This document shows, in pieces, positions 5,735-44,093 of a stretch of 64,000 nt of DNA. This stretch comes from Clostridiales bacterium (lineage in GTDB: Bacteria > Bacillota > Clostridia > Oscillospirales > CAG-272): assembly GCA_012522015.1 (NCBI GenBank), contig JAAYLD010000026.1:6694-70693 (forward strand), written 5' to 3'. How positions within the stretch are numbered: the first letter of the stretch is position 1; the number at the start of each line of letters is the position of its first letter. A model generated the notes under the pieces. The model had not been told where the DNA came from. It worked only from the letters and a program-made list of their open reading frames with translations, and searched no databases. The translations under genes were made by a program, and so were the position numbers.

Positions 5735-6148
5735 ATGACAAAGCAACAAGAATTAATAACAGGGATTGTCAACAGCTCCCGTAATCATCCAACCGCCGCA
5801 GAAATATACATCGAAGCGCGGCAGAAGATGCCCTCCATTGCTGTTGGGACTGTTTACCGCAATTTAAAGCTGCTTACCAGCTCCGGTGAAATAAGAAAGC
5901 TTTCGTTTCCCGGTCAGCCGGAACGTTACGATCGTATTGAACACCCGCATGGGCACCTACACTGTGTCGCCTGCGGCGGGATAAATGATTTTGAAATAAG
6001 CCCAACCTTGCGGGATGAAATACTTGCACACGCAGGTGAGAGGGTTATTTCTTGTGACGTAACGATTAATTATATTTGCGATGAGTGCGCTGTAGCAAAT
6101 GAAAACTCTGCTAATAAAAAATTAAAAAATTATAAAAGAAGGTTATGA
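5735..6148 (+). CDS. perR: Fur-family peroxide-responsive repressor (PerR-like)
   Basis: 137 aa. DNA-binding helix motif VGTVYRNL, metal sites HPHGHLHCVACG and CDEC. It sits immediately upstream of rubrerythrin. Confidence 0.8.
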   Translation: MTKQQELITGIVNSSRNHPTAAEIYIEARQKMPSIAVGTVYRNLKLLTSSGEIRKLSFPGQPERYDRIEHPHGHLHCVACGGINDFEISPTLRDEILAHAGERVISCDVTINYICDECAVANENSANKKLKNYKRRL

Positions 6149-6151
6149 AAA

Positions 6152-6799
6152 ATGAAAAAATGGAAATGCCCGATTTGCGGATACATTTATGAGGGAGATA
6201 AAATACCTGAAGGCTTTGTTTGCCCGGTATGCGGCGCTCCCGGTTCATCATTTGTTCTGATAGAACCTGTGCTAAAGGGAAGCAAAACTGAGGCAAACCT
6301 TCTTGCAGCTTTTGCAGGTGAATCGCAGGCTCATACTAAGTATTTGTATTTTGCATCGAAAGCGAAAAAAGACGGTTACGTTCAGATTGCAAAGATTTTT
6401 GAGGAAACAGCCTTAAATGAAAAAGAGCACGCTAAAATTTGGTTTAAGTACCTCAATGGCATAGGCACAACAGCCGAGAACCTCAAAACTGCAGCCGAAG
6501 GCGAAAACTATGAGTGGACGGATATGTATGCCGGTTTCGCTAAGACGGCAAGAGAAGAAGGGTTCGACGAAATCGCCGAGAGATTTGAGATGGTTGCAAA
6601 GATTGAGAAGGAGCACGAGGAGAGATACCGCAAGCTTCTTGCCAACGTCGAAGGAGGGCTTGTTTTCTCACGCGATGGCGACACCATTTGGCAGTGCTCA
6701 AACTGCGGACATATTCACATTGGCAAAGAAGCCCCCGAAGTCTGTCCTGTTTGCTCTCATCCGAGAAGCTATTTTGAGATCAGAGCCGAAAACTATTAA
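6152..6799 (+). CDS. rbr: rubrerythrin with rubredoxin-like CxxC...CxxC fingers at both termini
   Basis: N-terminal finger CPICGY...CPVCGA. Four-helix diiron core ([31 protein letters not shown]). C-terminal finger CSNCGH...CPVCSHP. The start lies 3 nt after the perR stop. Confidence 0.9.
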
Positions 6800-6870: not shown

Positions 6871-6909
6871 AAAAGCCAAGCTCACTGTTTTGATGAGCTT
6901 GGCTTTTTT
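6871..6909. terminator. bidirectional intrinsic terminator (rbr / murE convergent)
   Basis: 14-bp perfect stem AAAAGCCAAGCTCA / TGAGCTTGGCTTTT with a 9-nt loop, followed by a T-run to 6909. Confidence 0.8.
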
Positions 6910-6948: not shown

Positions 6949-8439
6949 TTACTTAACAGTAATTTTCTCTTCGGAGAGGCGGAGGGCTTCTTCAGTGATA
7001 ATACTACGCTCAGAGAATGCAAGGTATTCACCGCGTATAAGCTGGAATGATTCGTGTCCTTTCCCCGCAAACAGTATAATATCACCCTCACGTGCATTGC
7101 GGACAGCATATCGAATAGCCTTTGCGCGGTCTGGTATTGCTGTAAATGGTGTATTCCTGTTGCCGAAACCGTCTAAGATATCGCGTATGATAGCCATAGG
7201 ATCCTCAAAATCCGGATCGTCCGCTGTCAGAACACAGAAATCTGCGAGGCGAGAAATTGTTTCGCCGACGGGTTTCCTTCGTGAAAATGTGCGTCCGCCA
7301 ACGCATCCGACGAGTACTACAAGCCTTGTGGGGTTATACTTGCGGAGTACGGACAGCGCAGCTTCAAGAGAAACAGCATTATGTGCGTAATCAATAACAA
7401 AGGTACAGTACGGCAGCGCATCGACGACCTCGAACCGTCCAAGCGGTGTTGTATTGCTCAGCGCTGTGCGTATCATGTCAAACGGAATGCCAATATGATA
7501 GGCAACAGTAATAGCTTCGAGGGCATTATAAACAGAGAAAATCCCGGGAGACCGCAGGCGGAATGGGTACTTGCGGTCTCCGAAAACGCATGTAAAATCA
7601 ACGCCAAGCGCGCCTCTTTCACGCCATAAGCGTATATCCTCTCCTTTAATTTGAGCATTGTCGCCAACTGAAACTCCGCATGAAAGTGCTGTTGCTCTGG
7701 CAAGCATGTAGCTACTGTTCTCGTCATCAGCATTATATACAATGAATTGGCATCCGAAGTCAGAGAAAAGGCGCGCTTTTGAATAGCGGTAGTGCTCAAA
7801 ATTCGGGTGCTCATAGCGCCCAATATGGTCGGGCGATAGATTTGTGAAGATACATGTCTCAAACTTCAGCCCATGTATGCGCTCCATAAATATGGCCTGC
7901 GAGGACACCTCGATTATGACAATCTTTACCCCCGCTTTTACCATTTTATACAGGTATAATTGAATATCAGCGCTTTCTGGTGTTGTGCGGAGCGTTGACG
8001 TGCGGCGTCCGCAGAACATCACGCCAACAGTACCGATATATCCGACAGGAATGCCTGCTTCACTAAAAATTGAGTAAATTAAAAGCGCTGTTGATGTTTT
8101 GCCCTTTGTGCCTGTAATGCCGATAAGGCGGAGCTTGTCCGCCGGATGACCGTAAAAAGCTGCAGCAACATCGGCAAGTGCCGTGCGAGTGTCAGGTGCA
8201 TATAAAACTGCCGCATCCTTTGGCAAATCAACCGGCTTCTGGCAGAGAAAAGCGCGAGCTCCACGCTCATATGCGTCTTTTGCATAAAAGTGACCATCTG
8301 TGACGTTGCCTTCAATGCAGACGAAAAGGGTGCCCGATGCGCACATTCGCGAGTCGTAAGATATCGCATCGATATCTTGGGCGGCAAACGCTGCAGGCAC
8401 AGTTATATTTAATTTAGACATCAGGGCATCAAGGCGCAT
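6949..8439 (-). CDS. murE: UDP-MurNAc-L-Ala-D-Glu:diamino-acid ligase (MurE), non-DNPR type
   Basis: 496 aa with YDSR, GITGTKGKTS, EVSSQ, TNLSPDHIG, DYAHN and GKGHE. The position-3 selectivity motif reads ADDPDFEDP rather than DNPR. Confidence 0.85.
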   Translation of the reverse strand: MRLDALMSKLNITVPAAFAAQDIDAISYDSRMCASGTLFVCIEGNVTDGHFYAKDAYERGARAFLCQKPVDLPKDAAVLYAPDTRTALADVAAAFYGHPADKLRLIGITGTKGKTSTALLIYSIFSEAGIPVGYIGTVGVMFCGRRTSTLRTTPESADIQLYLYKMVKAGVKIVIIEVSSQAIFMERIHGLKFETCIFTNLSPDHIGRYEHPNFEHYRYSKARLFSDFGCQFIVYNADDENSSYMLARATALSCGVSVGDNAQIKGEDIRLWRERGALGVDFTCVFGDRKYPFRLRSPGIFSVYNALEAITVAYHIGIPFDMIRTALSNTTPLGRFEVVDALPYCTFVIDYAHNAVSLEAALSVLRKYNPTRLVVLVGCVGGRTFSRRKPVGETISRLADFCVLTADDPDFEDPMAIIRDILDGFGNRNTPFTAIPDRAKAIRYAVRNAREGDIILFAGKGHESFQLIRGEYLAFSERSIITEEALRLSEEKITVK

Positions 8440-8472
8440 ATTGATAATTCCTTATTTATGTAATGATTGTTG

Positions 8473-9231
8473 TTAAATCTGATGTATTACTGCATCTTGA
8501 GTAATTTTCGTATAAGCTCTCAAAAAGGCTTCGCTAAAGCCACACGGCTCACTTCCGCAGGCGGTGATTGAGGCATATGCAAGCGTTTCAAGTGAGTCTA
8601 CCATATTCTCATCACCACCACTAACAAGCGAAAGTTCCGTGCAGCCGAGTATGAGGCAGTCGCAGCCTCGCTTATACATTTCGCGTGCGACTCGTTTGAA
8701 TATGGCGTCACCGCCGGGGCGGCCGGCTTTGACATAATCGTATATTATCTCAGTAACTTTCGCCTGCGTTTTTTCATCAGGTTCTACGCACCCAACACCA
8801 AGCCTCTGAAGCTGCTGCTTATAAGCACCAATACGGATCGTACCTTCAGTGGCAAGAATTCCTGCGCGGGTAAAACCGCGCCTTTTTACATGGTCGGCTG
8901 TAATGGAGACAATATCAAGAACAGGTATTGACACAGCGGCCGTTATCTCGTCGTGGAAAAAGTGAGCAGTGTTGCATGGAACGGCAATTATGTCGGCTCC
9001 CATAGCTTCAAGCGTCTTAATGTCGTGGCACATAAAAGGAGCTGGGCTGACATTTATGCGCCCCATGATATAGTTCGTCCGGTCCGGTATGTCCGTTCGG
9101 CTTGTTATTAAAATATTTAGGTGTTCAGCGTCGCATGTAGCTAATGTATGTTCAGTAATAAGCCTGTAGAAATAAACAGTCGCCATCGGGCCCATGCCTC
9201 CTAAAATTCCCAGGGTTTTCTTTTCGCTCAT
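8473..9231 (-). CDS. aspartate racemase (Asp/Glu racemase superfamily)
   Basis: 252 aa. GILGGMGPMAT, and both catalytic Cys motifs (AVPCNTAHFF and LILGCTELS). Confidence 0.8.
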   Translation of the reverse strand: MSEKKTLGILGGMGPMATVYFYRLITEHTLATCDAEHLNILITSRTDIPDRTNYIMGRINVSPAPFMCHDIKTLEAMGADIIAVPCNTAHFFHDEITAAVSIPVLDIVSITADHVKRRGFTRAGILATEGTIRIGAYKQQLQRLGVGCVEPDEKTQAKVTEIIYDYVKAGRPGGDAIFKRVAREMYKRGCDCLILGCTELSLVSGGDENMVDSLETLAYASITACGSEPCGFSEAFLRAYTKITQDAVIHQI

Positions 9232-9262
9232 TTAATTGCAGGGCCTCCCTTGTAGATATTAA

Positions 9263-10501
9263 TTATAAATCTTTGCAGTATTTTTTATACTTGCCGTATT
9301 GGCGGCGCCCCATCTCAAGCACACATGCAAAGCGGAGAGGTGAGCGCAGAAGGTCGGGGGCATACATGTAAGAGGATGCCGCATCACCTGACGCCGCAAG
9401 TAAACGCGCGCTTGCGACAAGCTCGGGATTTTTTGTATAACGACGGATGACACCGCGCGGCACAGAGTGCCAAAAAACCTTTTTTTCTACTTCATGAAAG
9501 GGTTTTTTAATACCTTCAATCAAGTCGTCAACGACAAGGCGGGCTATGTTTTCACCGGCGGCAGTTACATAATAGTTGCTGCGTCCTTGACGAAGGTTCA
9601 TATCAAATGCGTAATGCTCACCAGTCTCCTTGTCAAATTTAATATCAAAATTGCAAAAACCTGTGTAGCCCTCCCCATCCAGTATAGCACGAAAACGGGA
9701 AGTGAGAGAAGGGTTATATTCGGTAATTATTGCCGAATGATTGCCGATTCCCTTCGGTGTATGCTCCTCAAGAAGCACGTGTCCAAGGCACATCATAGAG
9801 ACATGTCCCGTTTTATCTGAATACGTAGTAAGGACGCGCATTCCATCGTCGCCACCAGGTATGTGCTTTTGTATGATAATGCGTCCGGGGTAGCCTGACG
9901 CGTATATACGGGAGATGATTTCTTCCGCATCTTTTTGAGTTTCTGCAAAATAAGCCTTTTTCATACCATCGAAAGGGTAGCGCCAGTATTCGGCGCTTGA
10001 AGATGGCTTTATGACAAGCGGAAAGGAGAATCCTTCATCTGAAAGGTTTGATGGAAGCTGTGATTTTTCCGAAATAATAAGTGTTTTTGGATACGGGACG
10101 CCGTATTTATCGCACATAGCGTAAAAAAATGCTTTTTCAGCAAAAAGATCACGGCAGCGCGGGGATGTATAAGGCACTGCGTACCTTGCATCAAGACGCC
10201 CTTTTGCCGCAAGATCAATAATCATCAAGACATATTCGTCCGTACACCCGAAAAGCGGCATTGATGCGTCCGGATGTGAGCGTGAGAATTCATCGAGCAC
10301 AGCGGCGAGACGTTCGCCATCTCCTTCGGTAAGGTCGGGCACTAAGTGAGTTTTTACAATAGACGAATATTTTGTCGCGCTGACGGCAAAGCGGCCAAAA
10401 ACATGACTTTTGACCCGGTACGCCTCATGAAATGCGCGCGCTATATTGTAAGCGTTTAAATCCGCACCTATGATGACGGGAATTATATTTATCGAGGACA
10501 T
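9263..10501 (-). CDS. ATP-grasp carboxylate-amine ligase, D-aspartate-ligase-like
   Basis: About 412 aa with typical ATP-grasp size and layout (PLVIKPSSS..., QKHIPGGDD, FCNFDIKFD). I place the start at the ATG at 10501, preceded by GAGG. The track start GTG at 10516 overlaps the asnB stop as GTGA. Function is assigned mainly from its position between asnB and the racemase. Confidence 0.65.
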   Translation of the reverse strand: MSSINIIPVIIGADLNAYNIARAFHEAYRVKSHVFGRFAVSATKYSSIVKTHLVPDLTEGDGERLAAVLDEFSRSHPDASMPLFGCTDEYVLMIIDLAAKGRLDARYAVPYTSPRCRDLFAEKAFFYAMCDKYGVPYPKTLIISEKSQLPSNLSDEGFSFPLVIKPSSSAEYWRYPFDGMKKAYFAETQKDAEEIISRIYASGYPGRIIIQKHIPGGDDGMRVLTTYSDKTGHVSMMCLGHVLLEEHTPKGIGNHSAIITEYNPSLTSRFRAILDGEGYTGFCNFDIKFDKETGEHYAFDMNLRQGRSNYYVTAAGENIARLVVDDLIEGIKKPFHEVEKKVFWHSVPRGVIRRYTKNPELVASARLLAASGDAASSYMYAPDLLRSPLRFACVLEMGRRQYGKYKKYCKDL

Positions 10502-10512
10502 TTCTCTTCGCC

Positions 10513-12354
10513 TCACGTTTTCTTGTCAAAGTCAATGAAAAAGCGTTTGTACCAAACGAGGAATGCGTATATCACCCATATCATTCGCTGGTTGTTCGCG
10601 ACGCCGTTTTTATGGTCGTCAAGGATTTTCAGTATTTTATCGCGATTAAAGAATTCGGCGGCGTAATCGGCAGTAAAATACTCACGGACAATGCTGTAGA
10701 ATTTATCCTCCCGCAGCCATTTGCGGATTGGCACGGGAAATCCTTTTTTAGGGCGTGTTGCCCATTCTGCCGGGAGCACTTTCGCCGCCGCGCGGCGGAG
10801 AACAAACTTTGTGTCAATTTCGTTGACGCGGTAACAATCGGGAACGCGGCGTGCGGACTCCATAACGACACGGTCAAGGTAGGGGACTCTAAGCTCAACA
10901 GAATGAGCCATAGACATTTTGTCTGCTTTTAATAAAATGTCGCCCGGCAGCCACAAATTTAGGTCAAGATATTGCTTTTTTGTAAGCTCCGTCGCGTCTT
11001 TTACCTTGTCATAAATCGGTCGGGTAATATCGCGCGGTGACGGGCCAACCAGATAATCAGGTGTGAGGATGTGTAGTGCAGCTTTTTCGTGGAAAACGAT
11101 TGCTTGTCCGATAAAATATTTCTCCGGAACACCGCTTGAATTTATGATGAAATCGTGTCCTTTAAAATACGGCAGTTTTTCGGCTATTGACGCCGCACCA
11201 CGGCGCAGAAAGCCGGGCAAATGCTTATACTTCCGCATGAGCGGCGGGGTGAAGTATGATTCATAACCGCCCCATATTTCATCGGCTCCCTCGCCTGAAA
11301 GCACAACGGTGACATAACGGCGTGTCAGCTCGGAGAGAAACCATAGCGGAACTGACGAGGGATTAGCCTGAGGCTCGTCCATGTGGTACTGTATGTCGGG
11401 GAAAGCGTCAAAACATTCTTCCGGCGTTATTATTTTTGTGTGATGTTGGACGCCAAGCAGTTTTGATAAGCGAATAGCGTCTTGAGTCTCGTCAAAGCCA
11501 TCGATATCAAAACCTACGGAAAACGTGTGTTCCGGCAAAAGGGATGCCGTTACATAGCTTGAGTCGATACCGCCTGACAAAAACGAGCCGACAGGTACGT
11601 CGCTTATTTTATGTGCGTTGACTGAAGCGCGAACGATCTCATCTGTTTCGTTTATGAAGTCGGCAAGACTTTTTTTGTCATCGGGTTCAAACACTATTTC
11701 CCAGTAACGCTTTGTTTTAATTTTACCATTCTTAAACGTTAGTATGTGCGCCGGCGGTAGCTTATACACACCGGTGAAAAATGTCTCATCCATCGATGAA
11801 TACTGGAATGAAAGGTAAGGGCGCAGCGCCTTATTATTTACACGCGGCTTAAATGCGGGGTGCTCAAGGAAACATTTTATCTCGCTGCCAAAGAGAATTT
11901 CACCGCCTAAATCCGTATAGTAAAAAGGCTTGATGCCAAAAGGGTCGCGAGCGCAGAAAAGTGTTTTTTCATCCCTGTTCCATATAGCAAATGAAAACAT
12001 TCCGCGAAGCATTAAAACGATGGCCTCGCCATATTCTTCGTAGCCGTGAAGAATGACTTCCATATCACACCGTGACTTGAATATATGTCCACGTGCGATA
12101 AGCTGCTCTCGCAGTTCCATAAAATTACATATCTCGCCATTACAGACGATAACATGAGAGCCTGTTTCATTAAACATCGGCTGAGTGCCGTCGATGAGGT
12201 CGATTATGGAGAGACGGCGGAATCCAAGTGTAATGCCGTCTCCAATATATTCACCGGACATATCAGGGCCGCGGTGAATAATGCGGTCCATCATCGCGCC
12301 GATAATATTTTTGCTGTTGGGATAATATCCCGAAAAACCGATGAAACCGCACAT
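10513..12354 (-). CDS. asnB: asparagine synthetase (glutamine-hydrolysing), AsnB family
   Basis: The start is set at MCGFIG (Cys2 nucleophile), with GGAGG 9 nt upstream. RGPD, the SGGIDSS PP-loop and LKADKMSMAHSVELRVPYLD are present. The 9 extra residues in the ORF track overlap the promoter. Confidence 0.9.
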   Translation of the reverse strand: MCGFIGFSGYYPNSKNIIGAMMDRIIHRGPDMSGEYIGDGITLGFRRLSIIDLIDGTQPMFNETGSHVIVCNGEICNFMELREQLIARGHIFKSRCDMEVILHGYEEYGEAIVLMLRGMFSFAIWNRDEKTLFCARDPFGIKPFYYTDLGGEILFGSEIKCFLEHPAFKPRVNNKALRPYLSFQYSSMDETFFTGVYKLPPAHILTFKNGKIKTKRYWEIVFEPDDKKSLADFINETDEIVRASVNAHKISDVPVGSFLSGGIDSSYVTASLLPEHTFSVGFDIDGFDETQDAIRLSKLLGVQHHTKIITPEECFDAFPDIQYHMDEPQANPSSVPLWFLSELTRRYVTVVLSGEGADEIWGGYESYFTPPLMRKYKHLPGFLRRGAASIAEKLPYFKGHDFIINSSGVPEKYFIGQAIVFHEKAALHILTPDYLVGPSPRDITRPIYDKVKDATELTKKQYLDLNLWLPGDILLKADKMSMAHSVELRVPYLDRVVMESARRVPDCYRVNEIDTKFVLRRAAAKVLPAEWATRPKKGFPVPIRKWLREDKFYSIVREYFTADYAAEFFNRDKILKILDDHKNGVANNQRMIWVIYAFLVWYKRFFIDFDKKT

Positions 12355-12386
12355 AGGATTAAGCCTCCAAGTAGTAAACATCTATT

Positions 12387-12415
12387 ATTATAACACAAAC
12401 AAATGGCTTGGTAAA
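12387..12415 (-). promoter_or_regulatory. candidate sigma-A promoter of the asnB-murE operon
   Basis: On the minus strand: TTTACC (12415-12410), 17 nt, then TGtTATAAT (12395-12387). This implies a leader of about 25 nt containing the GGAGG. Confidence 0.45.
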
Positions 12416-12498: not shown

Positions 12499-12528
12499 AT
12501 AAAAAGCCGGTCATACTGTATGACCGGC
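12499..12528 (-). terminator. intrinsic terminator of the AraC-family gene
   Basis: Perfect 10-bp stem GCCGGTCATA / TATGACCGGC (12506-12528) with loop ctg, followed on the minus strand by TTTTT (12505-12501). Confidence 0.75.
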
Positions 12529-23425: not shown

Positions 23426-23453
23426 TTGACAAAATATACATATATGGTAATTA
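23426..23453 (+). promoter_or_regulatory. candidate sigma-A promoter of moxR
   Basis: TTGACA (23426-23431), 16-nt spacer, then TGgTAATTA (23445-23453). The TTG used as a start codon by the ORF track is the first triplet of this -35 hexamer. Confidence 0.45.
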
Positions 23454-23527
23454 AAATGTTAATAATGAGTTCAGTTTTTAAGGAATCCTCGATAAAAAGA
23501 TACAGTTTTACAAAAAGGAGACGAGCA

Positions 23528-24565
23528 ATGCCTGATATCACACAAAAGCAAGCAGAAGACATAATAACAGAGGCATCACAAGAGTCGCAGGAAACTCAGT
23601 TGACACAGGATGAGGCATACTCAATTTTTAAGGCACTCGTTGCAGAGGTTGATAAGGTGATTATTGGAAAACACCCTGAAATTATACTTATAACTTCTGC
23701 GCTTTTAGCGGGCGGCCATGTTCTCATCGAGGATGTGCCCGGAGTTGGGAAAACGACACTTGCATCAGCACTTGCAAAGGCAGCGGGCCTTTCTTTTAAA
23801 CGCGCGCAATTTACCCCTGACGTTATGGCATCTGACATAACCGGATTTAATATTTACAACCGTAAAACGGAAAGCTTTGAATTCCGCGAAGGGCTTGTTA
23901 TGTGCAATTTGCTTCTTGCCGACGAAATCAACCGTGCCTCTCCTAAGACACAGTCGTCTCTACTTGAAGCAATGGAGGAATCACGCGTTACCGTTGACGG
24001 TAAAACATATACGATCCCAGATCCTTTCATGGTCATAGCAACGCAAAACCCGGCGGGTTATGTTGGTACTTATCCGCTCCCCGAAGCTCAGCTCGACCGT
24101 TTTATGATAAAAATAGCGATGGGATATCCTACACTTAACGAGGAGATTGAGATAATCGACAGCCGACGCGAGAATAACCCTCTTGCTGATGTGAAAACTG
24201 TTGCTGATGTTGCAACTATCAGAGGCATGCGTAAACATATTTCCTCGATTAAAGTTGATCCCAAAATCTATAAATACATCGCAACTCTCGTACAGGTTAC
24301 GCGCACTCACCCGCTTATATCGCTTGGCGCCAGCCCGCGTGCATCTGTCGCTCTTATGCGCATCTCACAGGCGTTTGCTTTTACGCGTGGGAGGTCATAT
24401 GTGCTGCCGGACGACGTTGCTGCAGTATATACGCATACAGTCGCCCACCGTCTAATTCTGAAGCAGGAAGCGAAGCTTAATCGCATCTCAGCAAGAGATA
24501 TATTGACGGAACTGAGCCGTACGGTTGATGTGCCGTATGTAACAGAGCGCGAACAAAAGAAATAA
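23528..24565 (+). CDS. MoxR-family AAA+ ATPase
   Basis: The ATG at 23528 lies 7 nt after AAAGGAGA. Walker A EDVPGVGKT, Walker B LLADEINR, and ATQNP...PEAQLDRF. Confidence 0.9.
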   Translation: MPDITQKQAEDIITEASQESQETQLTQDEAYSIFKALVAEVDKVIIGKHPEIILITSALLAGGHVLIEDVPGVGKTTLASALAKAAGLSFKRAQFTPDVMASDITGFNIYNRKTESFEFREGLVMCNLLLADEINRASPKTQSSLLEAMEESRVTVDGKTYTIPDPFMVIATQNPAGYVGTYPLPEAQLDRFMIKIAMGYPTLNEEIEIIDSRRENNPLADVKTVADVATIRGMRKHISSIKVDPKIYKYIATLVQVTRTHPLISLGASPRASVALMRISQAFAFTRGRSYVLPDDVAAVYTHTVAHRLILKQEAKLNRISARDILTELSRTVDVPYVTEREQKK

Positions 24566-24604
24566 TAGCCGACACCCACGCGCGGGAGCCGGCAGATTAA
24601 TGCC

Positions 24605-24636
24605 GGGCCGCAAACGCGGCCCGTCTTTGGATTTTT
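24605..24636 (+). terminator. intrinsic terminator/attenuator between moxR and the DUF58 gene
   Basis: GGGCCGC-aaac-GCGGCCC (24605-24622) followed by GTCTTTGGATTTTT. Confidence 0.55.
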
Positions 24637-24819
24637 ACATAAGCAGCGGAGATAGAACGAAACAGCGCACAAATGGGCGCTATAGTGCTCAAGTAACGCT
24701 ATTGTAGCGCTGCAAAAACACCGCTGGCGTTTCCATGATTATTATTATCGCCCCCCTGATATAACGCTCAACTCCTCTTTTGAGCCAGGGGCAATTACAT
24801 GTGTACAAGGACGCCATAG

Positions 24820-26523
24820 ATGAAAACTATGAAAACAATAAAAGCAGATAATGTTATTAAGCAAGAGAATATAACGCGACATCGGTTTTCCGTTTGCCGG
24901 AACTTTATTATGTATATATTTCTCCTTGCGTTCGCCATCATTTTCACACAGGCGTTGCGTTCTCCAGTATCGAACGTACTTTTCTGGTTCATGTTGCTGT
25001 TGCCAATCGGTCTTTTAATTTATACTGCAACAGGACTTAATGCGATACGTGTTTACGTCACATCAAAAGAGACAACGGCCGTAAAAAACGAAATCGTTTC
25101 GTATGAATTCCGTATTATAAACGATTCAATAATCCCGTATCCATTTGTCGATGCGCAGCTATCAATACCGAGCGAGGATGGCGTCAAGTGTGTAGACAGA
25201 ATTGTTTCTATGTCACTGATACCGACAGGCTGTTACATCTTTGAGAATAAAATGCGCTTTCGGTATCGCGGCAGCTATCGTGTTGGTGTTGCTAATATAT
25301 ATGTGCAGGACTTTTTCCGTATATTCCGCCTACGCCTTACTGTTGATATATATAACGATATTTATATATTACCACGCCGCATTCCGCTTGAGCGGAGCAC
25401 ATACAACGCCCCCTCCGATATGCCGACAGACAGCAATGTGATTGTTCGCGGCAACGAGTCAAGCGAACGGAGCAATATTCGTGAATACCGTACGGGAGAC
25501 TCGCTCAAGCATATACACTGGAAGCTTTCCTCAAAAATGCAGGACATTCAGGTAAACGAGTATATGCCCAACACAGGTAAAAACGTTTACATCTTCTGTG
25601 ACTTTGCCCAGCTGCAGAGCAGCGAGGAGAAGGAAGTCAAAAAAGGGCGGGTGGAAAGCAAGCAGAAGAAAGAGAAAAACAAAAAGAAACGTGTCAAAGT
25701 TAAGCTGAACCCGGCATCACCGCGTGAGAAAAGCCAAGAAGAACGCTTCGCTGACGCTGCATATGCGGCAAAGGCTGTTGCCAAAGCAAGGGAAGCGTTG
25801 AAACAAGAGGGCAACGCTGATGAGACTTTTGCCGCATCGGAGACGAAGAATATATCAGTTGACACATCCAACACCGGTACTTCCGATACAGATACAATAG
25901 CAAATACTGATGCTGATAAAGATGTCGTTTTAAGTGAAGATAAAGATAACGATATTAAGCGCGACAACGAGAGGTTTGGTACGAAGAATTCAAAGGACAG
26001 TATTTCATACGAGAGTTATTTCGCACGCGCGAACGATATCTTCCCCGAACATAAGAATGATATGGATTATTTCTGTGCAGATGGCGTGTCAGAGCTTGCA
26101 ATCGGTGCTGCCCTACGTGAAATTGCTGAGGGTAACAACGTCACTCTTATGTGGTTCGACAGCCGCGCCGAGAGTGGCTACGCCAGTTATATGCTGCGTT
26201 CTTATGCTGACATTGATGCTGTGTTCAAATATTTTGCAACAGCTCCGCTTGCGCCATATGAATGTAAGGTAACACGTTTGCCTGATTTGATAAGTGACGT
26301 TCAGAATCCGACATTCTTATTTGCTACAGCTGCGGTTTGCATTAATAATACGGAGGAATTTGCCAATGCGGCAAATAGAATGGGGGCCGAAAGGACAGAA
26401 ATATTGTTTTTTAATCCAATGGAGCGCTATCAAAATCCCGAGCTTAGACGCGAATATATCGAAGTTTGCCGCTCTCAGCTTGAGTGGAGCAATATTACCC
26501 TAAACGAAACACGTATTGCATGA
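24820..26523 (+). CDS. DUF58-family protein (vWA-like) with a long low-complexity insertion
   Basis: 567 aa. Two N-terminal TM segments and the DUF58 signature REYRTGDSLKHIHWKLS. A K/E/D/T-rich stretch of about 150 aa follows VYIFCDF, before the fold resumes. Confidence 0.8.
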   Translation: MKTMKTIKADNVIKQENITRHRFSVCRNFIMYIFLLAFAIIFTQALRSPVSNVLFWFMLLLPIGLLIYTATGLNAIRVYVTSKETTAVKNEIVSYEFRIINDSIIPYPFVDAQLSIPSEDGVKCVDRIVSMSLIPTGCYIFENKMRFRYRGSYRVGVANIYVQDFFRIFRLRLTVDIYNDIYILPRRIPLERSTYNAPSDMPTDSNVIVRGNESSERSNIREYRTGDSLKHIHWKLSSKMQDIQVNEYMPNTGKNVYIFCDFAQLQSSEEKEVKKGRVESKQKKEKNKKKRVKVKLNPASPREKSQEERFADAAYAAKAVAKAREALKQEGNADETFAASETKNISVDTSNTGTSDTDTIANTDADKDVVLSEDKDNDIKRDNERFGTKNSKDSISYESYFARANDIFPEHKNDMDYFCADGVSELAIGAALREIAEGNNVTLMWFDSRAESGYASYMLRSYADIDAVFKYFATAPLAPYECKVTRLPDLISDVQNPTFLFATAAVCINNTEEFANAANRMGAERTEILFFNPMERYQNPELRREYIEVCRSQLEWSNITLNETRIA

Positions 26524-26624
26524 GATAAGCCTGCGCGTGGGCAACAATGCAAATCTACCGGCAAGTTTTGACGCTTTATACGTTAGACTAAAGATAAAAA
26601 AGCTATTAAAATGCAAAAGGAGGG

Positions 26625-29600
26625 GTGCTGCGTGTTTTAACACGCAGTCGAACTCAAGTGGTCCGTAAAAAGGATGAATTAATCACTAACAATAATTTAA
26701 ATAATGGTGCTGGCACAGAAAAAAAGCACGCAAGGACAGCCATACTTGCTAAATTTAAGAAAAAAGCAAGGGATGCTGAACCTTCTTTGCCTAAAAAGCA
26801 AAATAATCAAGAGAGTCCGTCGAAAAGAAGCGTATCAATATCGACGCTTGCGTGCCTGCCGTCGCAGCAAAGACGCTCCCGATTCTCTTTATATATCGGG
26901 TTTTTTAGTCGTGCTTTGACGGCGGCAGTCGCCATTTGTGGGTTATCTCTTTTCGTATGCGATGCTTTTTTAATTGTTACAGAGAGGGCCCCGTTTACTG
27001 CTGTTTTATACCCGTCGCTCATTTTTTCAGTATTAGTCGGCGCAATGTGTCTGAATTATTACGCCCTCATCGGCGGGATTGTTTTGATTGGCGGTGGATT
27101 TACGGCATGGGCGTCAACGAATTCAGTCGATATATTTAATTATATCGCCGCGTCAATCACATCGTTTTATAACGCAGCAATTGAGAGAATTGCTTATGCC
27201 GGTTTAGTCGGAATAAAACGCTATGCGTTGCCGGAAAACTTTGCCGCCGCATACGATAAAACCTCTCTGTATAACATGAGCGTCGCCATTTTTACGCTTA
27301 TTATGGCCATAATTTTCGTACCGGCCATAATTAAGCGTGTCAGGATGAAATACATCATCATAATGGGCGCTTTGATTGTCACACCCATATTTTTATATAA
27401 CGTGATGCAAGACAACTGGGGGTTTTCCCTATTGCTTGCCGGATTGTCAGGTGTTATCGTCCTTTGGCTTTATGACAGGCGCTATACTATGCCGTCAAAA
27501 CGGAAGATGATAATATACGAACTCTCCGAGCTTTCACCTGCAATAGCAGATTCTCTACGTGATAATGGCGCAGCTCCTATGGGTGAAGATGCGGACAGCA
27601 AAACCGGTGATAGAAATAAAAAGAAAAGCCAAACTTTCTTTGCGCTGTTTAACCGGCCGCACGGCAAGGATACTGATATTGAATCCGCTCTTACATTAAT
27701 GAGCCCGCGCGAGCGTCGTTCCCGCATGCGAGAGCAGCGCACTATTAAGCGCGCTCAGCGTGCTGAAGCTAAGCGTCTGTGTAAAAAAGAAAAGAGGGAA
27801 GCAAAAAAGCAGTCTCGTCTGACAGACGATATGCTTTTACCAAACACAGCTCTCGGAGGCTTTGCTGGATTGCTTTCATCCGCATTCATTTTTCTTTTAA
27901 TACTGTTGCCGACTCTTGTCATTGACAAGGCTTATAATAGAATTGGCTTTATTAGTAAGATCATGGAAACAGCTCGTATTTATGTATCCGCATTTATCAC
28001 GGGCGAAGACGTGGACTTAAATAACGTATCAATTTTCGGTGAAAAAGGGGAGAACACAGGACCTCGTTCGATTGCTCTCGATTATCCGGAGTTTACAGGT
28101 GAGAAGGTCGCCCTTATCGAGACACCTTATAACACGCCTGTATACCTGCGCGCCTGGATAGGCACACGGTATGAGGATGATCACTGGTATTCGGCGACTC
28201 TTAAAGAAATTGACAGCTATAAAGATAAGTTTGGTAAGAATTTTACACCGGAGTCAATTACGGAGAATTTCTACAAAGCCATTTATCCGAGGTACGATGA
28301 CTACGCTTCAATTTCGGGATATAAAAACAATATGTCCTATGGCTTTATAATCGAGCATGTAAGCTTTACGAAACTGAATGGTAAAAGTTCGCTTTTATAT
28401 ATCCCATCGTTTATAAAGCCGTCCGCCGGATTGTTGCGTTATAATACGACAGAACCGACATATCTCCCAAATGAACCGTATTTTGATGGTGTGTGGATAT
28501 CAAAATTCTTCATTAAAGACACGCGGTATACGACGATTTCACTTGTCACGACGATGAGAAACAAAGATGTCGGGCTTAATATGTATAATAATATGATTTA
28601 TTACGACGAGATGATGAGTATTATTTTGTCGGACAAGATCAAAGAAATCGAGAAAATGAGCGAGCAGGAACGGGAGAATTATTATGAACTGCTTGAGCTT
28701 TGGCTTGCTTGTGGTTTTTGCAAAGCAAAGGGTTACAATTCGACAATAGAAAATATTTACTTTGGCATACACTCAAGTAAAGACGATGAGACTTCGCAAA
28801 TTAACGAAAGTGATATTGATAAAAAACTGATTAAAAACCCGGAACTCCTCAAAGAGCATTATTCACAGCTGTTGAATAATCCGAGTAAAGCAATAAAATA
28901 TGAAGGAGAACTCCTTGTAAAGCGCTATGTTGAAGATATGACCGCCAAAGAACGTGAGGCGCTTATCGATGCGTATAAAAAGGAGAAGATTTACGGGGAA
29001 TATGTAAAGAAAACTTACACTCAGATAGACAAAAAAGATGAAAAATTCTTAAAGAATTTTACAAATGAGATTCTTTTGGAATCCTTAAGTGATATAGCGA
29101 TTATCAATGACGAGGATTCTCAATTACAGTTTGACAAAAAGGACTATCACCGTGTAATCCTCACTTTCATCGATTATCTTAGTAAAAACTATACCTACAG
29201 TCAGACACCCCCTGAGGAGGAAACAGATATATCAACTGATACATTAGACAGCGCCGAAACGAACAGCGTTGAAACGGGCAGCGTTGAAACAGAAAGCGCT
29301 GAAACAAACGAGCAGGCGGATATTAGGGCAATACAGGATTTTCTCCTAAGATCTAAACGCGGCTATTGTGTGCAGTTTGCATCAGCCCTAACCCTTATGC
29401 TGCGCTCGGTTGGTATTCCCGCGCGATACTGTGAGGGATTTATAGCATCAGAATTTATAAACACTTTCCTTATAAATGATGACGCACTTACACGTTATAA
29501 ATGTGAAGTGAAGGACAGTAACGCGCACGCATGGGTTGAAGTTTATTACGATGATATAGGCTGGGTGCAGTACGAAGCGACACCGCCTTATCTTGCCGGT

Positions 29601-30209
29601 ATGTATGGTGATGAAGCACCTGACAGTCAATCACCCGAAAAAGAAATAAATATTGTAGATCCAAATAAAGACACAACACCGGAAGATATAAATGGTCCCG
29701 AAGTTGACAAAGGCTACAAGATCTCTGATACCCCTTTAATGATTATTATTTGCGCGTCGATTGTCATAGCTGTCGCTTTAGTCATAACGGTGATAGTAAT
29801 TATAACTGTCAAAAAATCAATAGCTGAAAAAACTGTTGCGGCACGAGAGAGGCTTATACGCCGGACAATGGATTTATCAGTTGATATGACGGATGACGAG
29901 ATACGCTCCGGCGCTCGCGATATGTGCTACGGGATTTTTGCTCTCTTTAAAGCACTTGGCGAGGAGCCGGCGGCAGGTGAGCTTTCTGATGCTTATGCGG
30001 AGCGTCTTGACGAAACCTTTGGCTCGGCATCACCGATTAAGCCACGCGAGATGCTTGATTATGTCCAAAAAGAGGAGTTCGGAGACGGCTTGACTCGACG
30101 TGAGCTTTCACTGCTTGCCGAGTATTATCGCGATCTTACAACAAATATTTACAACGGTCTTGGACGTTTCAATAAGATCCGATTCCGTTATGTCAAGAAC
30201 CTGCTATAA
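26625..30209 (+). CDS. polytopic transglutaminase-like protein (TgpA-like), 1194 aa
   Basis: Multiple N-terminal TM helices and a basic loop (RERRSRMREQRTIKRAQRAEAKRLCKKEKREAKK). The large ectodomain carries a transglutaminase core (RGYCVQFASALTLMLRSVGIPARYCEGF, HAWVEVYY, WVQYEATP). A C-terminal TM and tail follow. The start codon is uncertain because the GTG at 26625 is only 1 nt after AGGAGG. Confidence 0.85.
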   Translation: MLRVLTRSRTQVVRKKDELITNNNLNNGAGTEKKHARTAILAKFKKKARDAEPSLPKKQNNQESPSKRSVSISTLACLPSQQRRSRFSLYIGFFSRALTAAVAICGLSLFVCDAFLIVTERAPFTAVLYPSLIFSVLVGAMCLNYYALIGGIVLIGGGFTAWASTNSVDIFNYIAASITSFYNAAIERIAYAGLVGIKRYALPENFAAAYDKTSLYNMSVAIFTLIMAIIFVPAIIKRVRMKYIIIMGALIVTPIFLYNVMQDNWGFSLLLAGLSGVIVLWLYDRRYTMPSKRKMIIYELSELSPAIADSLRDNGAAPMGEDADSKTGDRNKKKSQTFFALFNRPHGKDTDIESALTLMSPRERRSRMREQRTIKRAQRAEAKRLCKKEKREAKKQSRLTDDMLLPNTALGGFAGLLSSAFIFLLILLPTLVIDKAYNRIGFISKIMETARIYVSAFITGEDVDLNNVSIFGEKGENTGPRSIALDYPEFTGEKVALIETPYNTPVYLRAWIGTRYEDDHWYSATLKEIDSYKDKFGKNFTPESITENFYKAIYPRYDDYASISGYKNNMSYGFIIEHVSFTKLNGKSSLLYIPSFIKPSAGLLRYNTTEPTYLPNEPYFDGVWISKFFIKDTRYTTISLVTTMRNKDVGLNMYNNMIYYDEMMSIILSDKIKEIEKMSEQERENYYELLELWLACGFCKAKGYNSTIENIYFGIHSSKDDETSQINESDIDKKLIKNPELLKEHYSQLLNNPSKAIKYEGELLVKRYVEDMTAKEREALIDAYKKEKIYGEYVKKTYTQIDKKDEKFLKNFTNEILLESLSDIAIINDEDSQLQFDKKDYHRVILTFIDYLSKNYTYSQTPPEEETDISTDTLDSAETNSVETGSVETESAETNEQADIRAIQDFLLRSKRGYCVQFASALTLMLRSVGIPARYCEGFIASEFINTFLINDDALTRYKCEVKDSNAHAWVEVYYDDIGWVQYEATPPYLAGMYGDEAPDSQSPEKEINIVDPNKDTTPEDINGPEVDKGYKISDTPLMIIICASIVIAVALVITVIVIITVKKSIAEKTVAARERLIRRTMDLSVDMTDDEIRSGARDMCYGIFALFKALGEEPAAGELSDAYAERLDETFGSASPIKPREMLDYVQKEEFGDGLTRRELSLLAEYYRDLTTNIYNGLGRFNKIRFRYVKNLL
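29250..29309 (+). repeat. 4 x 15-nt in-frame tandem repeat (S-A/V-E-T-x)
   Basis: agcgccgaaacgaac / agcgttgaaacgggc / agcgttgaaacagaa / agcgctgaaacaaac, encoding SAETN SVETG SVETE SAETN just upstream of the transglutaminase core. Confidence 0.85.
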
Positions 30210-37877: not shown

Positions 37878-39002
37878 ATGAAAGTATTTTCGACATCTAT
37901 AAAAGAAAAGCTAAAAAGGCTTGACTTTGTTATAATCGGTTGCGCCGTCGGTATGACGGCGCTATCGGTTTTGACGCTTTATGGTGCAAAGGATAATTAT
38001 GCCTATGGGCAGAGGATGTTCATTATACAGACGTGCTCGGCACTTCTTGGACTTGTTTGTATGGTGATTATATCGCTTATCGACTATGATGCGCTGATAA
38101 CAAAGTTTTGGATTCCTTTAATTGGTCTTTCCGTTGCACTGATTGGCGCCGTCCTTCTCTTTGGGGACAAAACGGAAAACCAGACGCTTTACATATCAAT
38201 AGGACCGCTGCACCTACAGGCGTCAGAATTTGTAAAATCACTTTTCATTTTGTCATTCGCAAAACACCTTGATTTATTAAAACACAAGATAAACAGTCCT
38301 CGCAGTCTTATTATGCTTGCCACGCACGCTGGTCTCATTATTGGCATGATGCTTATTACGGGCGACCTCGGCACAACTCTTGTATTTGTGGCTATAACGG
38401 CTTTTATGCTTTTTGCAGCAGGGCTTTCACTTTGGTATTATATAGGCATTATTGGCGCTTTAGTAATAGCGACACCATACATTTGGCCTCATCTCGGTGA
38501 ATATCAGCAAATGCGGATACTCTGCGGGTTTGACCCTGAGATTGATCCGATGCACTATGGTTATCAGTCACTTCGCAGCCGCGAAGCCATATCAGCCGGC
38601 GGATTCTGGGGTGCTGGGATCATGGGCGGGACGGAATATTTGAATATCCCCGTTGCAACGACAGATTTTTTATTTTCTGTTATGTGCGAGAAGTTAGGCT
38701 TCTTCGGTGCGCTTTTATACATAGTTCTTATGTGCACGCTGATATTCCGCATAATACATATAGCTCGCCTTGCACGCAAGGACACAGGGACATTTATATG
38801 TATTGGTGTTGCGGCGATTTTAATTACACAGACTACGGAAAATATGGGGATGTGCCTTGCCATGCTTCCTGTAATCGGAATAACGATGCCCTTTATAAGC
38901 TATGGCGGATCCTCAATGCTTGCTATGTACTGCGCACTTGGTCTGGTACAAAGTGTCCGTTTACATAATCAAAAATATTTCTTTGAACGAGAAAATGCTT
39001 AA
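37878..39002 (+). CDS. FtsW/RodA/SpoVE-family peptidoglycan glycosyltransferase (SEDS)
   Basis: 374 aa, about 10 TM, with QPSE-like ASEFVK, DLGT, TDFLFSV and GITMPFISYGGSS. Confidence 0.9.
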   Translation: MKVFSTSIKEKLKRLDFVIIGCAVGMTALSVLTLYGAKDNYAYGQRMFIIQTCSALLGLVCMVIISLIDYDALITKFWIPLIGLSVALIGAVLLFGDKTENQTLYISIGPLHLQASEFVKSLFILSFAKHLDLLKHKINSPRSLIMLATHAGLIIGMMLITGDLGTTLVFVAITAFMLFAAGLSLWYYIGIIGALVIATPYIWPHLGEYQQMRILCGFDPEIDPMHYGYQSLRSREAISAGGFWGAGIMGGTEYLNIPVATTDFLFSVMCEKLGFFGALLYIVLMCTLIFRIIHIARLARKDTGTFICIGVAAILITQTTENMGMCLAMLPVIGITMPFISYGGSSMLAMYCALGLVQSVRLHNQKYFFERENA

Positions 39003-40837: not shown

Positions 40838-42016
40838 TTATACCGATAGTGCAGGATTTATCTTTAAAAACACGGACAAACCTATGATAAATATAGTTGT
40901 TGACAAAGCGACAACGGCAAGGATGAAGCCGGAGACGTTTTTAAGCTCCGCCATTAAGGTGGCAATGCGGTCGCAGCCCAAAATTTTCGCAGCGGCTGAG
41001 CATATGCCAAGGATAGCTCCGTTTAAAAATAAGTTTATAAGTACCGGCGATACGATGAGAATAATAACAACAATACCGACAGCGCCGACGCTGCTCTTTA
41101 TCAGCGAAAGTCCTGCTGCTGTGCCTTTGATAGCATCGCCAAGTGCGCCCCCGACGACAGGAATTGAGCTTCCGATGGCATATTTAATTGAGCGTGCGGC
41201 AACGCCATCGGCTGCAGCGGTAAGGGTCGTCTGGTAAGTCATCACGGCAGTAAAGAGAGCGGCGGCAAACCCTGCTGTAACGGTGAAAGTCTTTTTAACA
41301 ATACCGCATATTCCGTCGGTATGACCATTTTCTGAGATAGCGGCAATGATAGCAAGTCCGAAACACGCACGACAAAGCGGTAAAAAGCAGTATTCCGTAA
41401 AATTTGCTAAAATTGTTGTGAATTCAAGAAGTCCTGCCCCTGTGACCGACGCCGTAAGAGTGTTACCGGAGGATATAAGAAGTGCAGTTAGAATAGGAAT
41501 GATTGCATTTGAAAAGACAGTCATCGAACCGATGACAAGAGCAGCGCCGTTGATAATGCCGACTTGCGTATTTATGACGTGACAAGCGACAGCGAGCGTC
41601 GCGCAAAGAGTAAACATACGTCCGATAGCAGCACAGCTAAGCCCGTCCGCAAGAAGCCCGAACGATGCGGCGAGCGCTGTCATGCCAAGAAGCGATGCAA
41701 GGTTTCCTGCCGCGGGCAAAAGAGAGCGTTTTATAAAGCTCCAGAGCTTGCCAAATATATATTTAACCCCGATTTTTTCAGGGAGCGACGAAGAGGTATC
41801 TTCTCCATCAAATATCCCCTCGGGAAGCTCTGACAGCACGTCCTCCGGAATGAACTTGCGAAGCTCGGAGAACGAATCATTTACATCACTTGTGGCGTTT
41901 GACATCGCTTGTGTTGAGCCGTCACTGCTTTTATGTGTATCAACAGCGCTTATGTGAGATGAGAGCAAAAGTAGTGCCGATATAAAAGCGGCGATCGCCG
42001 CTCCCCAGCGCCTCAT
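40838..42016 (-). CDS. spoIIIAE: stage III sporulation protein AE
   Basis: 392 aa with a signal-like N-terminus, polytopic and Gly/Ala-rich, plus its position in the operon. Confidence 0.9.
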   Translation of the reverse strand: MRRWGAAIAAFISALLLLSSHISAVDTHKSSDGSTQAMSNATSDVNDSFSELRKFIPEDVLSELPEGIFDGEDTSSSLPEKIGVKYIFGKLWSFIKRSLLPAAGNLASLLGMTALAASFGLLADGLSCAAIGRMFTLCATLAVACHVINTQVGIINGAALVIGSMTVFSNAIIPILTALLISSGNTLTASVTGAGLLEFTTILANFTEYCFLPLCRACFGLAIIAAISENGHTDGICGIVKKTFTVTAGFAAALFTAVMTYQTTLTAAADGVAARSIKYAIGSSIPVVGGALGDAIKGTAAGLSLIKSSVGAVGIVVIILIVSPVLINLFLNGAILGICSAAAKILGCDRIATLMAELKNVSGFILAVVALSTTIFIIGLSVFLKINPALSV

Positions 42017-42390
42017 ATAAGCCCCGCGACACCTGATAACAGCTCGGTGATAAGCGGGAGAGAAATCAAAAGTATTTCAGCTCGCCCCAAAAGTTCAATG
42101 CCGCTTGCAGCCGTATCAGCGCCTGCCCCTCGGCAGGCATCAGCAGTGATGACAGTGCAATAACCAATGCCGATTGCTTTAAGAAGAACAGCGGCGTAAG
42201 ATTCAAAGGCTGTCCCCTCTGCTGCCGAAATAAGGAACGAAACCGACGGATAAATCGAAGCAATCGCAGCTGCGGCAGCCATTATAGCAACGGCGGCTGA
42301 AAGCAGAGCCGACATACCCTTCATTTCGCGGAGTATCGGTACGGCGGCGGCACAGAGCAGAGCAGCACCGCATATTTTAAGCGTCGTCAC
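42013..42390 (-). CDS. spoIIIAD: stage III sporulation protein AD
   Basis: 125 aa, 4 TM, with 4-nt overlaps to both neighbours. Confidence 0.85.
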   Translation of the reverse strand: MTTLKICGAALLCAAAVPILREMKGMSALLSAAVAIMAAAAAIASIYPSVSFLISAAEGTAFESYAAVLLKAIGIGYCTVITADACRGAGADTAASGIELLGRAEILLISLPLITELLSGVAGLI

Positions 42391-42581
42391 AGTCCAAACA
42401 CATCCTTTATCATTTCAAAAAGCTGTCCGAGTTTGCCCGTGATCATAAGTAAAACAACAATTATTCCCGCAACGGAAACAAGCATCGACTGTTCGTCCCT
42501 GCCGGAATTCGAAAGCACCTGACACGAAGCAGCGACAATAATTCCGACGCCAGCAATTTTTAATATAAGTCCAACATCCAC
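42387..42581 (-). CDS. spoIIIAC: stage III sporulation protein AC
   Basis: 64 aa, 2 TM, with the conserved SGRDEQSMLVSVAGIIVVL. Confidence 0.85.
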   Translation of the reverse strand: MDVGLILKIAGVGIIVAASCQVLSNSGRDEQSMLVSVAGIIVVLLMITGKLGQLFEMIKDVFGL

Positions 42582-42599
42582 TTCTAAACACCGCGTTTC

Positions 42600-43091
42600 T
42601 TAAAGAAGTATTATTATAACAGTAAGAATTATAAAAAGGCATATTGTCCGCTCAAGCCGACGACGTTCGGGGAGTGTTTTTTCAAGCACCTCTATTCTTT
42701 CTTTTAATCGTGATGAGGTGATAGAGCATAGCTCAAGCTGAGATTTTTCATATCCGCGGCCAAGTTCCGCCGCAAACTCTTCCATTATCGACAGTGTGCC
42801 CAAGTCAAAAAGCTCACCACCGCACGACGCAAGTGCCGAGGTAAGGGAAGTAATAGCAGCACGCCTGCACAAATTTTGAAATAACTCGTCGGATGTACGG
42901 AAGCCCATTAGTATCTCCGGCACGGTGGCACGTCTGTATTCAATTGATTCAGCTGTGTACCGAACAAGTCTGAGTGCCTCTTTTGCGCGTGCGAGTTTTT
43001 GTGTGCCGTCGCTTGCGCTTTGCGATAGAAGAATGGCTCCGCCAATCAGTAAAAGAACAGCTCCTGCGGCTTTGTAAATATATACGTTCAT
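42600..43091 (-). CDS. spoIIIAB: stage III sporulation protein AB
   Basis: 163 aa with N- and C-terminal TM segments around a helical GspF-like core, plus its position in the operon. Confidence 0.8.
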   Translation of the reverse strand: MNVYIYKAAGAVLLLIGGAILLSQSASDGTQKLARAKEALRLVRYTAESIEYRRATVPEILMGFRTSDELFQNLCRRAAITSLTSALASCGGELFDLGTLSIMEEFAAELGRGYEKSQLELCSITSSRLKERIEVLEKTLPERRRLERTICLFIILTVIIILL

Positions 43092-44035: not shown

Positions 44036-44093
44036 GGTATATGTATACGGTGGAGGGCGAGAGGATATGACGGGCACGCTATCTGACATGCAA

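Follow-up and report, generated by a model that had tools for sequence, protein, structure and literature searches.

A four-gene minus-strand operon in an endospore-forming member of the Clostridia probably acts as a cytoplasmic module that sets the chemotype of the peptidoglycan, directing synthesis of a lysine-type wall cross-linked via D-aspartate (D-Asp) or D-isoasparagine (D-isoAsn). The operon lies in a stretch of 64,000 nucleotides from Clostridiales bacterium (assembly GCA_012522015.1, contig JAAYLD010000026.1, positions 6,694 to 70,693; hereafter the window). In order of transcription it encodes an AsnB-type amidotransferase, an ATP-grasp ligase, a two-cysteine racemase and MurE (Table 1). 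The reading draws on the identities of the genes, on folds and motifs, on homology to lactobacillal proteins, on conserved linkage and on the loss from MurE of the arginine that binds meso-diaminopimelate (meso-DAP). An earlier note, made from the bare sequence, had described four co-directional genes for a D-Asp branch pathway; the genes are confirmed where it had placed them, and each motif that it quoted (MCGFIG, SGGIDSS, PCNTAH, GCTELS, DDPD) is present in the translations. The pathway as such is already known from lactic acid bacteria. The apparent novelty lies in a D-Asp operon that incorporates MurEs of a separate, uncharacterised clade, together with the prediction of Lys-D-Asp/isoAsn walls in many Clostridia.

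All substrates and the order of the reactions are modeled on the biochemistry of Enterococcus faecium and Lactococcus lactis (PMC4155827). MurE, with its DDPD motif, would first add a diamino acid lacking a distal carboxylate, most likely L-Lys and possibly L-Orn, to UDP-MurNAc-L-Ala-D-Glu. The racemase would convert L-Asp into D-Asp, and the ATP-grasp ligase would activate D-Asp at its beta-carboxyl, through an acyl phosphate, and join it to the side-chain amino group of precursor residue 3. Finally, the AsnB-type amidotransferase would amidate the free alpha-carboxyl of D-Asp, giving D-isoAsn. The resulting wall would be of the A4-alpha type, with L-Lys-D-Asp/D-isoAsn bridges, and the operon would be expressed from a housekeeping-type promoter. 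In L. lactis, aslA and racD form an operon and AsnH amidates D-Asp after ligation; aslA is present in lactic acid bacteria of the Lys-D-Asp type and absent from L. plantarum, which is of the meso-DAP type (PMC4155827).

The operon is widespread, notably among gut Clostridia. A scan with the ligase alignment, using one genome per GTDB species, finds at least 596 ligase loci; the best 80 are all from Clostridia, many of them labeled Oscillospiraceae or its members, and 84 related loci were examined for gene content. Closest among the matches listed is a metagenome-assembled genome from biogas, "Clostridiales bacterium DTU064", whose four proteins are 84-92% identical to those of the window. The order asnB-ligase-racemase-murE of the window recurs in 53 of the 84 loci at protein identities of only 45-65%, so that the arrangement is conserved far beyond chance, and murE is linked to the ligase gene in 69 loci and stands beside it in 66. 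The remaining variation follows a few patterns: asnB, ligase and murE occur without the racemase in 13 loci, including those of Subdoligranulum and Gemmiger, and asnB, ligase and racemase occur with no murE within the flank in 12. Among these 12, loci of Ruthenibacterium and Owariibacterium (L038, L043, L044, L054, L076, L079) show the order ligase-racemase-asnB and no murE. By a protein search, the ligase family extends to cultured members of Peptostreptococcaceae and of Tissierellia, and ligase-racemase-murE is present in the complete genome of Peptostreptococcus equinus and in Intestinibacter bartlettii. Of the arrangements in Oscillospiraceae the murE-containing operon is the most frequent, and it is found in Peptostreptococcaceae too. 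Being common in Clostridia, it is no peculiarity of the genome studied here, and the embedding of MurE in a side-chain operon, which the earlier note did not know from the studied lactic acid bacteria, is confirmed as a recurrent feature of both families. No description of a murE-containing D-Asp operon was found in the literature searched.

The same body of loci bears on whether the module serves the wall at all. Some natural-product pathways employ MurE-like, ATP-grasp and AsnB-like (beta-lactam-synthetase-like) enzymes, and the loci lie outside the division and cell wall (dcw) cluster among unrelated genes, as might be expected if the product were a small nucleotide-peptide or a secondary metabolite. 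Such a non-wall product is nevertheless very improbable: the MurE is full length, with a UDP-binding domain at its N terminus and a score above the cut-off of the MurE subfamily, the conserved core contains no transporter, resistance or tailoring gene, the AsnB protein scores far below the cut-offs for lasso-peptide and macrolactam cyclases, and the module is single-copy in hundreds of species, a housekeeping-like conservation.

The ATP-grasp protein has no Pfam match and no sequence match in the PDB, and its best NCBIfam score is about 18 bits. Its AlphaFold model (predicted local distance difference test, pLDDT, 90.9; predicted template-modeling score, pTM, 0.89) has the three-domain ATP-grasp fold, for which Foldseek returns PurK, L-amino-acid ligases, PurD and PylC as the best PDB structures (probability 1.00, TM score 0.5-0.6). 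A tblastn search of PLSDB matches the ligase, at 32-34% identity and 92-99% coverage of the query, to proteins of Latilactobacillus curvatus, Lactobacillus crispatus and Limosilactobacillus fermentum; against L. curvatus AslA the full-length identity is 32% (BLASTP E 4e-80), and the L. crispatus homologue is 33% identical. These three lactobacilli of the Lys/Orn-D-Asp type, whose sequences are chromosome fragments filed as plasmids in PLSDB, stand in for E. faecium Aslfm and L. lactis AslA as references; the L. curvatus proteins are named RacD, AslA and AsnH in a review (PMC13631041). An alignment of the ligases from clostridia and lactobacilli has 67 invariant columns. JGI names the protein identical to that of the window "D-aspartate ligase", and both JGI and UniRef use this name for clostridial members. 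The genomic setting matches as well: the ligase gene directly follows an amino-acid racemase gene and aspS in L. curvatus and directly follows asnB in L. crispatus, and in the window the racemase gene comes 31 nt after the ligase gene, a linkage kept in 68 of the 84 loci and in L. curvatus. The comparison with characterised ligases that the earlier note had called for is thus positive against lactobacillal AslA-type ligases, and supports the grouping of the protein, predicted from its sequence, with the D-aspartate-ligase family; no other ATP-grasp family scores meaningfully. The predicted substrate is D-Asp chiefly because organisms with an established pathway show the same association of three families.

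Many records filed as plasmids in PLSDB are chromosome fragments or contigs of metagenome bins (OY7257xx-OY7260xx, CP117684.1, CP033372.1, NZ_CP083394.1). These mislabeled records, which include the TSDC17.2 series, a 592 kb entry of L. curvatus and a 760 kb entry of L. fermentum, carry essential genes, among them murE, aspS and the dcw cluster.

The third gene product is a two-cysteine racemase of the Asp/Glu superfamily, as had been proposed. It matches Pfam Asp_Glu_race (PF01177, 143.9 bits) and TIGR00035 (226.8 bits, cut-off 93), and L. curvatus RacD, with which it shares 32-36% identity, has both of its catalytic cysteines, Cys86 (CNTAH) and Cys197 (GCTELS). It also exceeds the cut-off of the equivalog model for the cysteate racemase CuyB (NF052483, 212.7 vs 190 bits), so that the profile alone leaves the substrate unsettled and aspartate is assigned from context. 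Automatic annotation will for the same reason probably misname the protein as CuyB.

The first gene product was likewise rightly recognized as an AsnB-type amidotransferase. It contains the Pfam domains GATase_7/GATase_6 and Asn_synthase, scores 496.7 bits on TIGR01536 (cut-off 267), and has an N-terminal Cys at the corrected start and SGGIDSS in the synthetase domain. Over 631 columns it is 44% identical to the L. crispatus asnB product encoded directly upstream of the aslA homologue, and asnB is linked to the ligase gene in 81 of the 84 loci. This homology and linkage are indirect backing for an enzyme that would act on the D-Asp side chain of the precursor and not on free Asp.

Together, the three proteins leave some room for the same module with another chemistry, in which the ligase would add a different D- or acidic residue (for example D-Glu as a Lys-D-Glu bridge, D-Ser or a sulfonated residue) supplied by the racemase. 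At 32-34% identity to lactobacillal AslA, the ligase could use a different amino-acid substrate; the racemase passes the cysteate-racemase model, TIGR00035 is merely a subfamily-level model ("subfamily: amino acid racemase"), and the racemase gene is not beside the ligase gene in 13 of the 84 loci. We consider this alternative unlikely. Glutamate-racemase models score the racemase far lower (33-38 bits), the frequent asnB linkage fits amidation of the Asp alpha-carboxyl as carried out by AsnH (PMC4155827), and the same three-gene association occurs in lactobacilli with known D-Asp bridges.

The window MurE has the three Mur ligase domains (PF01225, PF08245, PF02875), the P-loop GTKGKT and GKGHE, and scores 389.2 bits on TIGR01085 (cut-off 257.3). 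In the DNPR motif of meso-DAP-adding enzymes, Asn and Arg bind the distal carboxylate of the substrate; the corresponding motif of Staphylococcus aureus MurE is DNPA (PMC3829189). None of the 67 cluster-linked MurEs has the Arg: the motif is DNPD in 56, DNPN in 4, DNPG in 3, DDPD in 2 and DNPA in 2. In addition, GGDRD of the DAP types is replaced by VGGRT in this clade, and in a neighbor-joining tree the 67 proteins are monophyletic, with no reference sequence inside. DNPR is found in the reference MurEs of Escherichia coli, Bacillus velezensis, Monoglobus and one Oscillospiraceae dcw cluster, as well as in three further MurEs from Oscillospiraceae dcw clusters; all dcw MurEs of this family that were read carry it. 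The reference motifs without Arg are those of S. aureus (DNPA), Enterococcus faecalis (DDPA) and Collinsella (EDPA). The suggestion that a MurE without DNPR is a non-DAP enzyme is thereby strengthened, as Arg is absent throughout the cluster-linked proteins and DNPR is kept in dcw MurEs of the same family. The acidic residue at motif position 4 may favor a cationic side chain, Lys or Orn. Because the clade branches with DAP-type Firmicute MurEs, it seems to have shifted away from DAP independently, its Arg having been lost separately from the Staphylococcus/Enterococcus lineage. The window MurE may work like the Lys-adding enzymes of that lineage, of which it is not a member.

An Oscillospiraceae MurE with exactly DDPD, 32% identical to that of the window, is encoded by Vescimonas fastidiosa pMM35_01 (NZ_AP023416.1, 5923-7410). 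The neighbors of this gene, on a secondary replicon of 861 kb, are pgeF and thyA; it is neither part of a dcw cluster nor adjacent to a ligase gene.

Several observations weigh against a Lys-type wall, and some of them would suit one that stays DAP-type, with MurE adding meso-DAP (or an amidated or LL form) and either a branch on the DAP amino group (A4-gamma-like) or an asnB product that amidates DAP, like AsnB1, LtsA and Bacillus subtilis AsnB. The window MurE passes NF001126, an equivalog named DAP ligase (431.9 vs 373 bits), and fails the L-Lys-ligase equivalog NF010628, which is of the Staphylococcus/Enterococcus type (309.7 vs 536 bits). Its nearest characterised relatives are of the DAP type, with identities of 37-39% to DAP-type Firmicute MurEs vs 29-33% to the Lys enzymes of Staphylococcus and Enterococcus. 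In S. aureus MurE the motif accounts for only part of the specificity, and A409R did not enable the enzyme to use DAP (PMC3829189). AsnB-family enzymes that amidate meso-DAP are known (PMC5485061, PMC8554201). The literature searched yielded no wall-type data for the Oscillospiraceae and Peptostreptococcaceae carriers; a 2024 review gives the wall type as unknown for most genera of Ruminococcaceae and Oscillospiraceae and as meso-DAP for Faecalibacterium. Moreover, in one metagenome bin, described below, a cluster lacking murE occurs alongside a DNPR-type MurE gene of the dcw cluster, so that the acceptor may be meso-DAP in some relatives. A DAP-type wall is nonetheless quite unlikely for the window. 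Not one of the 67 cluster-linked MurEs has the carboxylate-binding Arg; an acidic or small residue stands there instead, in most cases Asp, and Asp should repel the DAP carboxylate. GGDRD has become VGGRT, and a dedicated MurE would be unnecessary if the DAP enzyme of the dcw cluster sufficed; the presence of an Arg-less MurE in the operon itself argues against a DAP acceptor here. As an Arg-less protein passes NF001126, automatic annotation will probably misname the window MurE as a DAP ligase. RefSeq gives the DAP-ligase name to Collinsella MurE (EDPA) as well.

The preferred Lys-type reading raises the question of a second MurE. Five dcw-type MurE homologues were looked up, and none came from an assembly in the list of ligase loci; no locus among those examined has two MurE matches. 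The sole pairing of a cluster with a dcw region is found on two contigs of a metagenome bin labeled Subdoligranulum variabile TSDC17.2-1.1. The first contig carries mraZ-rsmH-ftsL-pbp-murE(DNPR)-murF-mraY and the second ligase-racemase-asnB without murE (OY725839.1, OY725879.1), and the two are similar in guanine-cytosine content (0.63 and 0.62). The dcw MurE of this bin is closest to Ruthenibacterium proteins, and the label is shared by a Collinsella bin, which means that it names a community and not an isolate. The ligase of the Ruthenibacterium-like lineage either uses meso-DAP as the acceptor of D-Asp or is accompanied by a further MurE encoded elsewhere.

More tentatively, the operon might be a self-contained, horizontally transferable chemotype cassette whose Lys/Orn-type MurE coexists with a DNPR MurE of the dcw cluster. 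The vegetative wall would then be of the Lys-D-isoAsn type, made from a sigma-A promoter, and the spore cortex or germ-cell wall would keep meso-DAP. We regard this extension as possible but doubtful. Three observations hint at it: the cluster MurEs form one clade over Oscillospiraceae and Peptostreptococcaceae, apart from the Oscillospiraceae dcw MurEs; gene order and murE content differ between lineages; and a decayed ligase-racemase-asnB copy occurs on a conjugative plasmid of Bacillus mycoides. A dual-chemotype arrangement of this kind has been described biochemically in Lysinibacillus sphaericus, in which the meso-DAP spore cortex is made with a separate, sporulation-specific adding enzyme. 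To our knowledge, it has never been genetically defined in Clostridia.

The plasmid copy lies on pl546 (CP067054.1, 8001-11819), and its products are 33-43% identical to the window proteins. Its ligase and asnB genes are each split in two frames and are thus probably pseudogenes; the presence of the module on a conjugative plasmid of the Bacillus cereus group gives a hint of horizontal movement.

Compared with the systems of L. lactis (aslA-racD and asnH) and E. faecium (Aslfm-Racfm), the operon shares the three enzyme families, the adjoining ligase and racemase genes and the predicted chemistry. It differs in that all three genes and murE stand in one operon, in an endospore-forming clostridium. 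The gene order differs as well, being asnB-ligase-racemase-murE in the window, aspS-racD-aslA in L. curvatus and asnB-aslA in L. crispatus. The Lys-adding MurEs of S. aureus (PDB 4C12) and E. faecalis resemble the window MurE in having lost the DNPR Arg (DNPA and DDPA vs DDPD), in being encoded outside the dcw cluster, and in using a diamino acid without a distal carboxylate, which for the window is a prediction. However, the window MurE is only 29-32% identical to them and has an acidic Asp rather than Ala at position 4. The Oscillospiraceae dcw MurEs (OY725839, P0186, P0228) share the enzyme family and the bacterial family of the window MurE (33-37% identity) and have the canonical DNPR; their genes sit in mraZ-rsmH-ftsL-pbp-murE-murF-mraY, whereas the window MurE belongs to a separate clade linked to D-Asp genes. 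Lysinibacillus (formerly the Bacillus sphaericus group) comprises endospore formers with an A4-alpha L-Lys-D-Asp vegetative wall (PMC11961540), so an endospore former with such a wall would not be new; Lysinibacillus belongs to the Bacilli, a different class from that of the window organism, for which the wall is predicted only.

The layout of the operon largely agrees with the earlier description. Its single promoter, its strong terminator and the separate terminator on the araC side were all recovered by the scan, and the ligase, then put at about 410 residues, has 412 from the corrected start. The two terminators (6907-6871 and 12528-12506) have the two longest stems among 18 terminator-like sites (chance expectation 9.0), the longest being that of the operon-closing site. 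The putative promoter, predicted from its match to the consensus, lies some 33 nt before the asnB start as corrected. That start is almost certainly the ATG at 12354, since the product then begins with the obligatory N-terminal Cys (MCGFIG), GGAGG lies 8 nt upstream, and the JGI gene identical to asnB of the window is called at 613 residues. An ATG at 12381 was rejected as it sits practically on the predicted transcription start. For the ATP-grasp gene, the most likely start is the ATG at 10501, which is preceded by GAGG and gives the length of a 100%-identical database protein (P0001, 412 residues); the alternative at 10516 was rejected on these grounds. Of the tight spacing reported earlier, the gaps of 31 nt (9232-9262, ligase-racemase) and 33 nt (8440-8472, racemase-murE) are exact, but the GTGA overlap of asnB and the ligase gene is probably not the start used, and the spacing there becomes 11 nt, which is still tight. 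An Rfam scan of the window gave no match, and thus no riboswitch or T-box leader is placed on the operon.

Table 1. Coordinates of the operon, its candidate signals and selected genes in the window (aa, amino acids; ORF, open reading frame; PLP, pyridoxal phosphate).
Feature	Position	Strand	Remarks
AsnB/AsnH-type glutamine amidotransferase	10513..12354	-	613 aa; corrected start (listed ORF reaches 12381)
ATP-grasp carboxylate-amine ligase, predicted D-aspartate ligase (Asl/AslA family)	9263..10501	-	412 aa (listed ORF 9263-10516)
PLP-independent two-cysteine racemase, predicted aspartate racemase (RacD-like)	8473..9231	-	252 aa
MurE, DDPD replacing DNPR, predicted L-Lys (or L-Orn) adding	6949..8439	-	motif at residues 407-410
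Candidate sigma-70-type promoter, TTTACC-17-TGTTATAAT	12387..12415	-	10/12 consensus matches, extended -10 TG
Operon-closing intrinsic terminator	6871..6907	-	15-pair stem, 7-nt loop, T-rich tail
Terminator of upstream araC-family gene, upstream boundary of the unit	12506..12528	-	10-pair stem, 6 GC pairs, TTTTTAT
Spore_III_AA (spoIIIAA)	43088-44101	-	sporulation stage III, region 40838-44101
Spore_III_AE (spoIIIAE)	40838-42016	-	sporulation stage III
FtsW/RodA/SpoVE-family gene	37878-39002	+	near spoIIIA genes

The neighbors of the operon are unrelated to it and comprise a two-component system, a Fur-family regulator, a rubrerythrin and an AraC-family regulator; the araC neighbor is not conserved in related loci. 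The Fur/PerR-like regulator and rubrerythrin genes (5735-6799, plus strand) are convergent with murE. A rubrerythrin gene also lies near downstream of murE in a locus of about 50% identity (L002, 12215-12748), and upstream of the module in Faecalimicrobium; this proximity is probably conserved synteny without a functional link. Farther along, spoIIIAA and spoIIIAE indicate that the lineage forms endospores, bearing out what the earlier note had assumed. On the plus strand, a region at 23426-30209 encodes in a row a MoxR-type AAA ATPase (23426-24565), a 567-residue protein with no Pfam match (24820-26523) and a 1194-residue transglutaminase-like protein (26625-30209).

If the preferred reading is correct, large clades of gut and digester Clostridia, among them Gemmiger, Subdoligranulum, Flemingibacterium, Intestinibacter, Romboutsia and Peptostreptococcus, would have Lys-type walls bridged by D-Asp or D-isoAsn, contrary to the DAP type that is usually assumed. 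This would change the host receptors engaged by their muropeptides, given that NOD1 senses DAP-type fragments, as well as the endolysins and bacteriocins that attack these bacteria, and it would bear on the origin of D-aspartate in the gut. It would also correct a probably systematic misnaming of this MurE clade as "diaminopimelate ligase" in databases. Interest would rise further if the operon MurE proved to be one of two paralogues and so provided the cell with two wall chemotypes. The cultured carriers P. equinus and I. bartlettii make the prediction directly testable, and the DNPD/DDPD clade offers an independent natural experiment on how the specificity of MurE is set.

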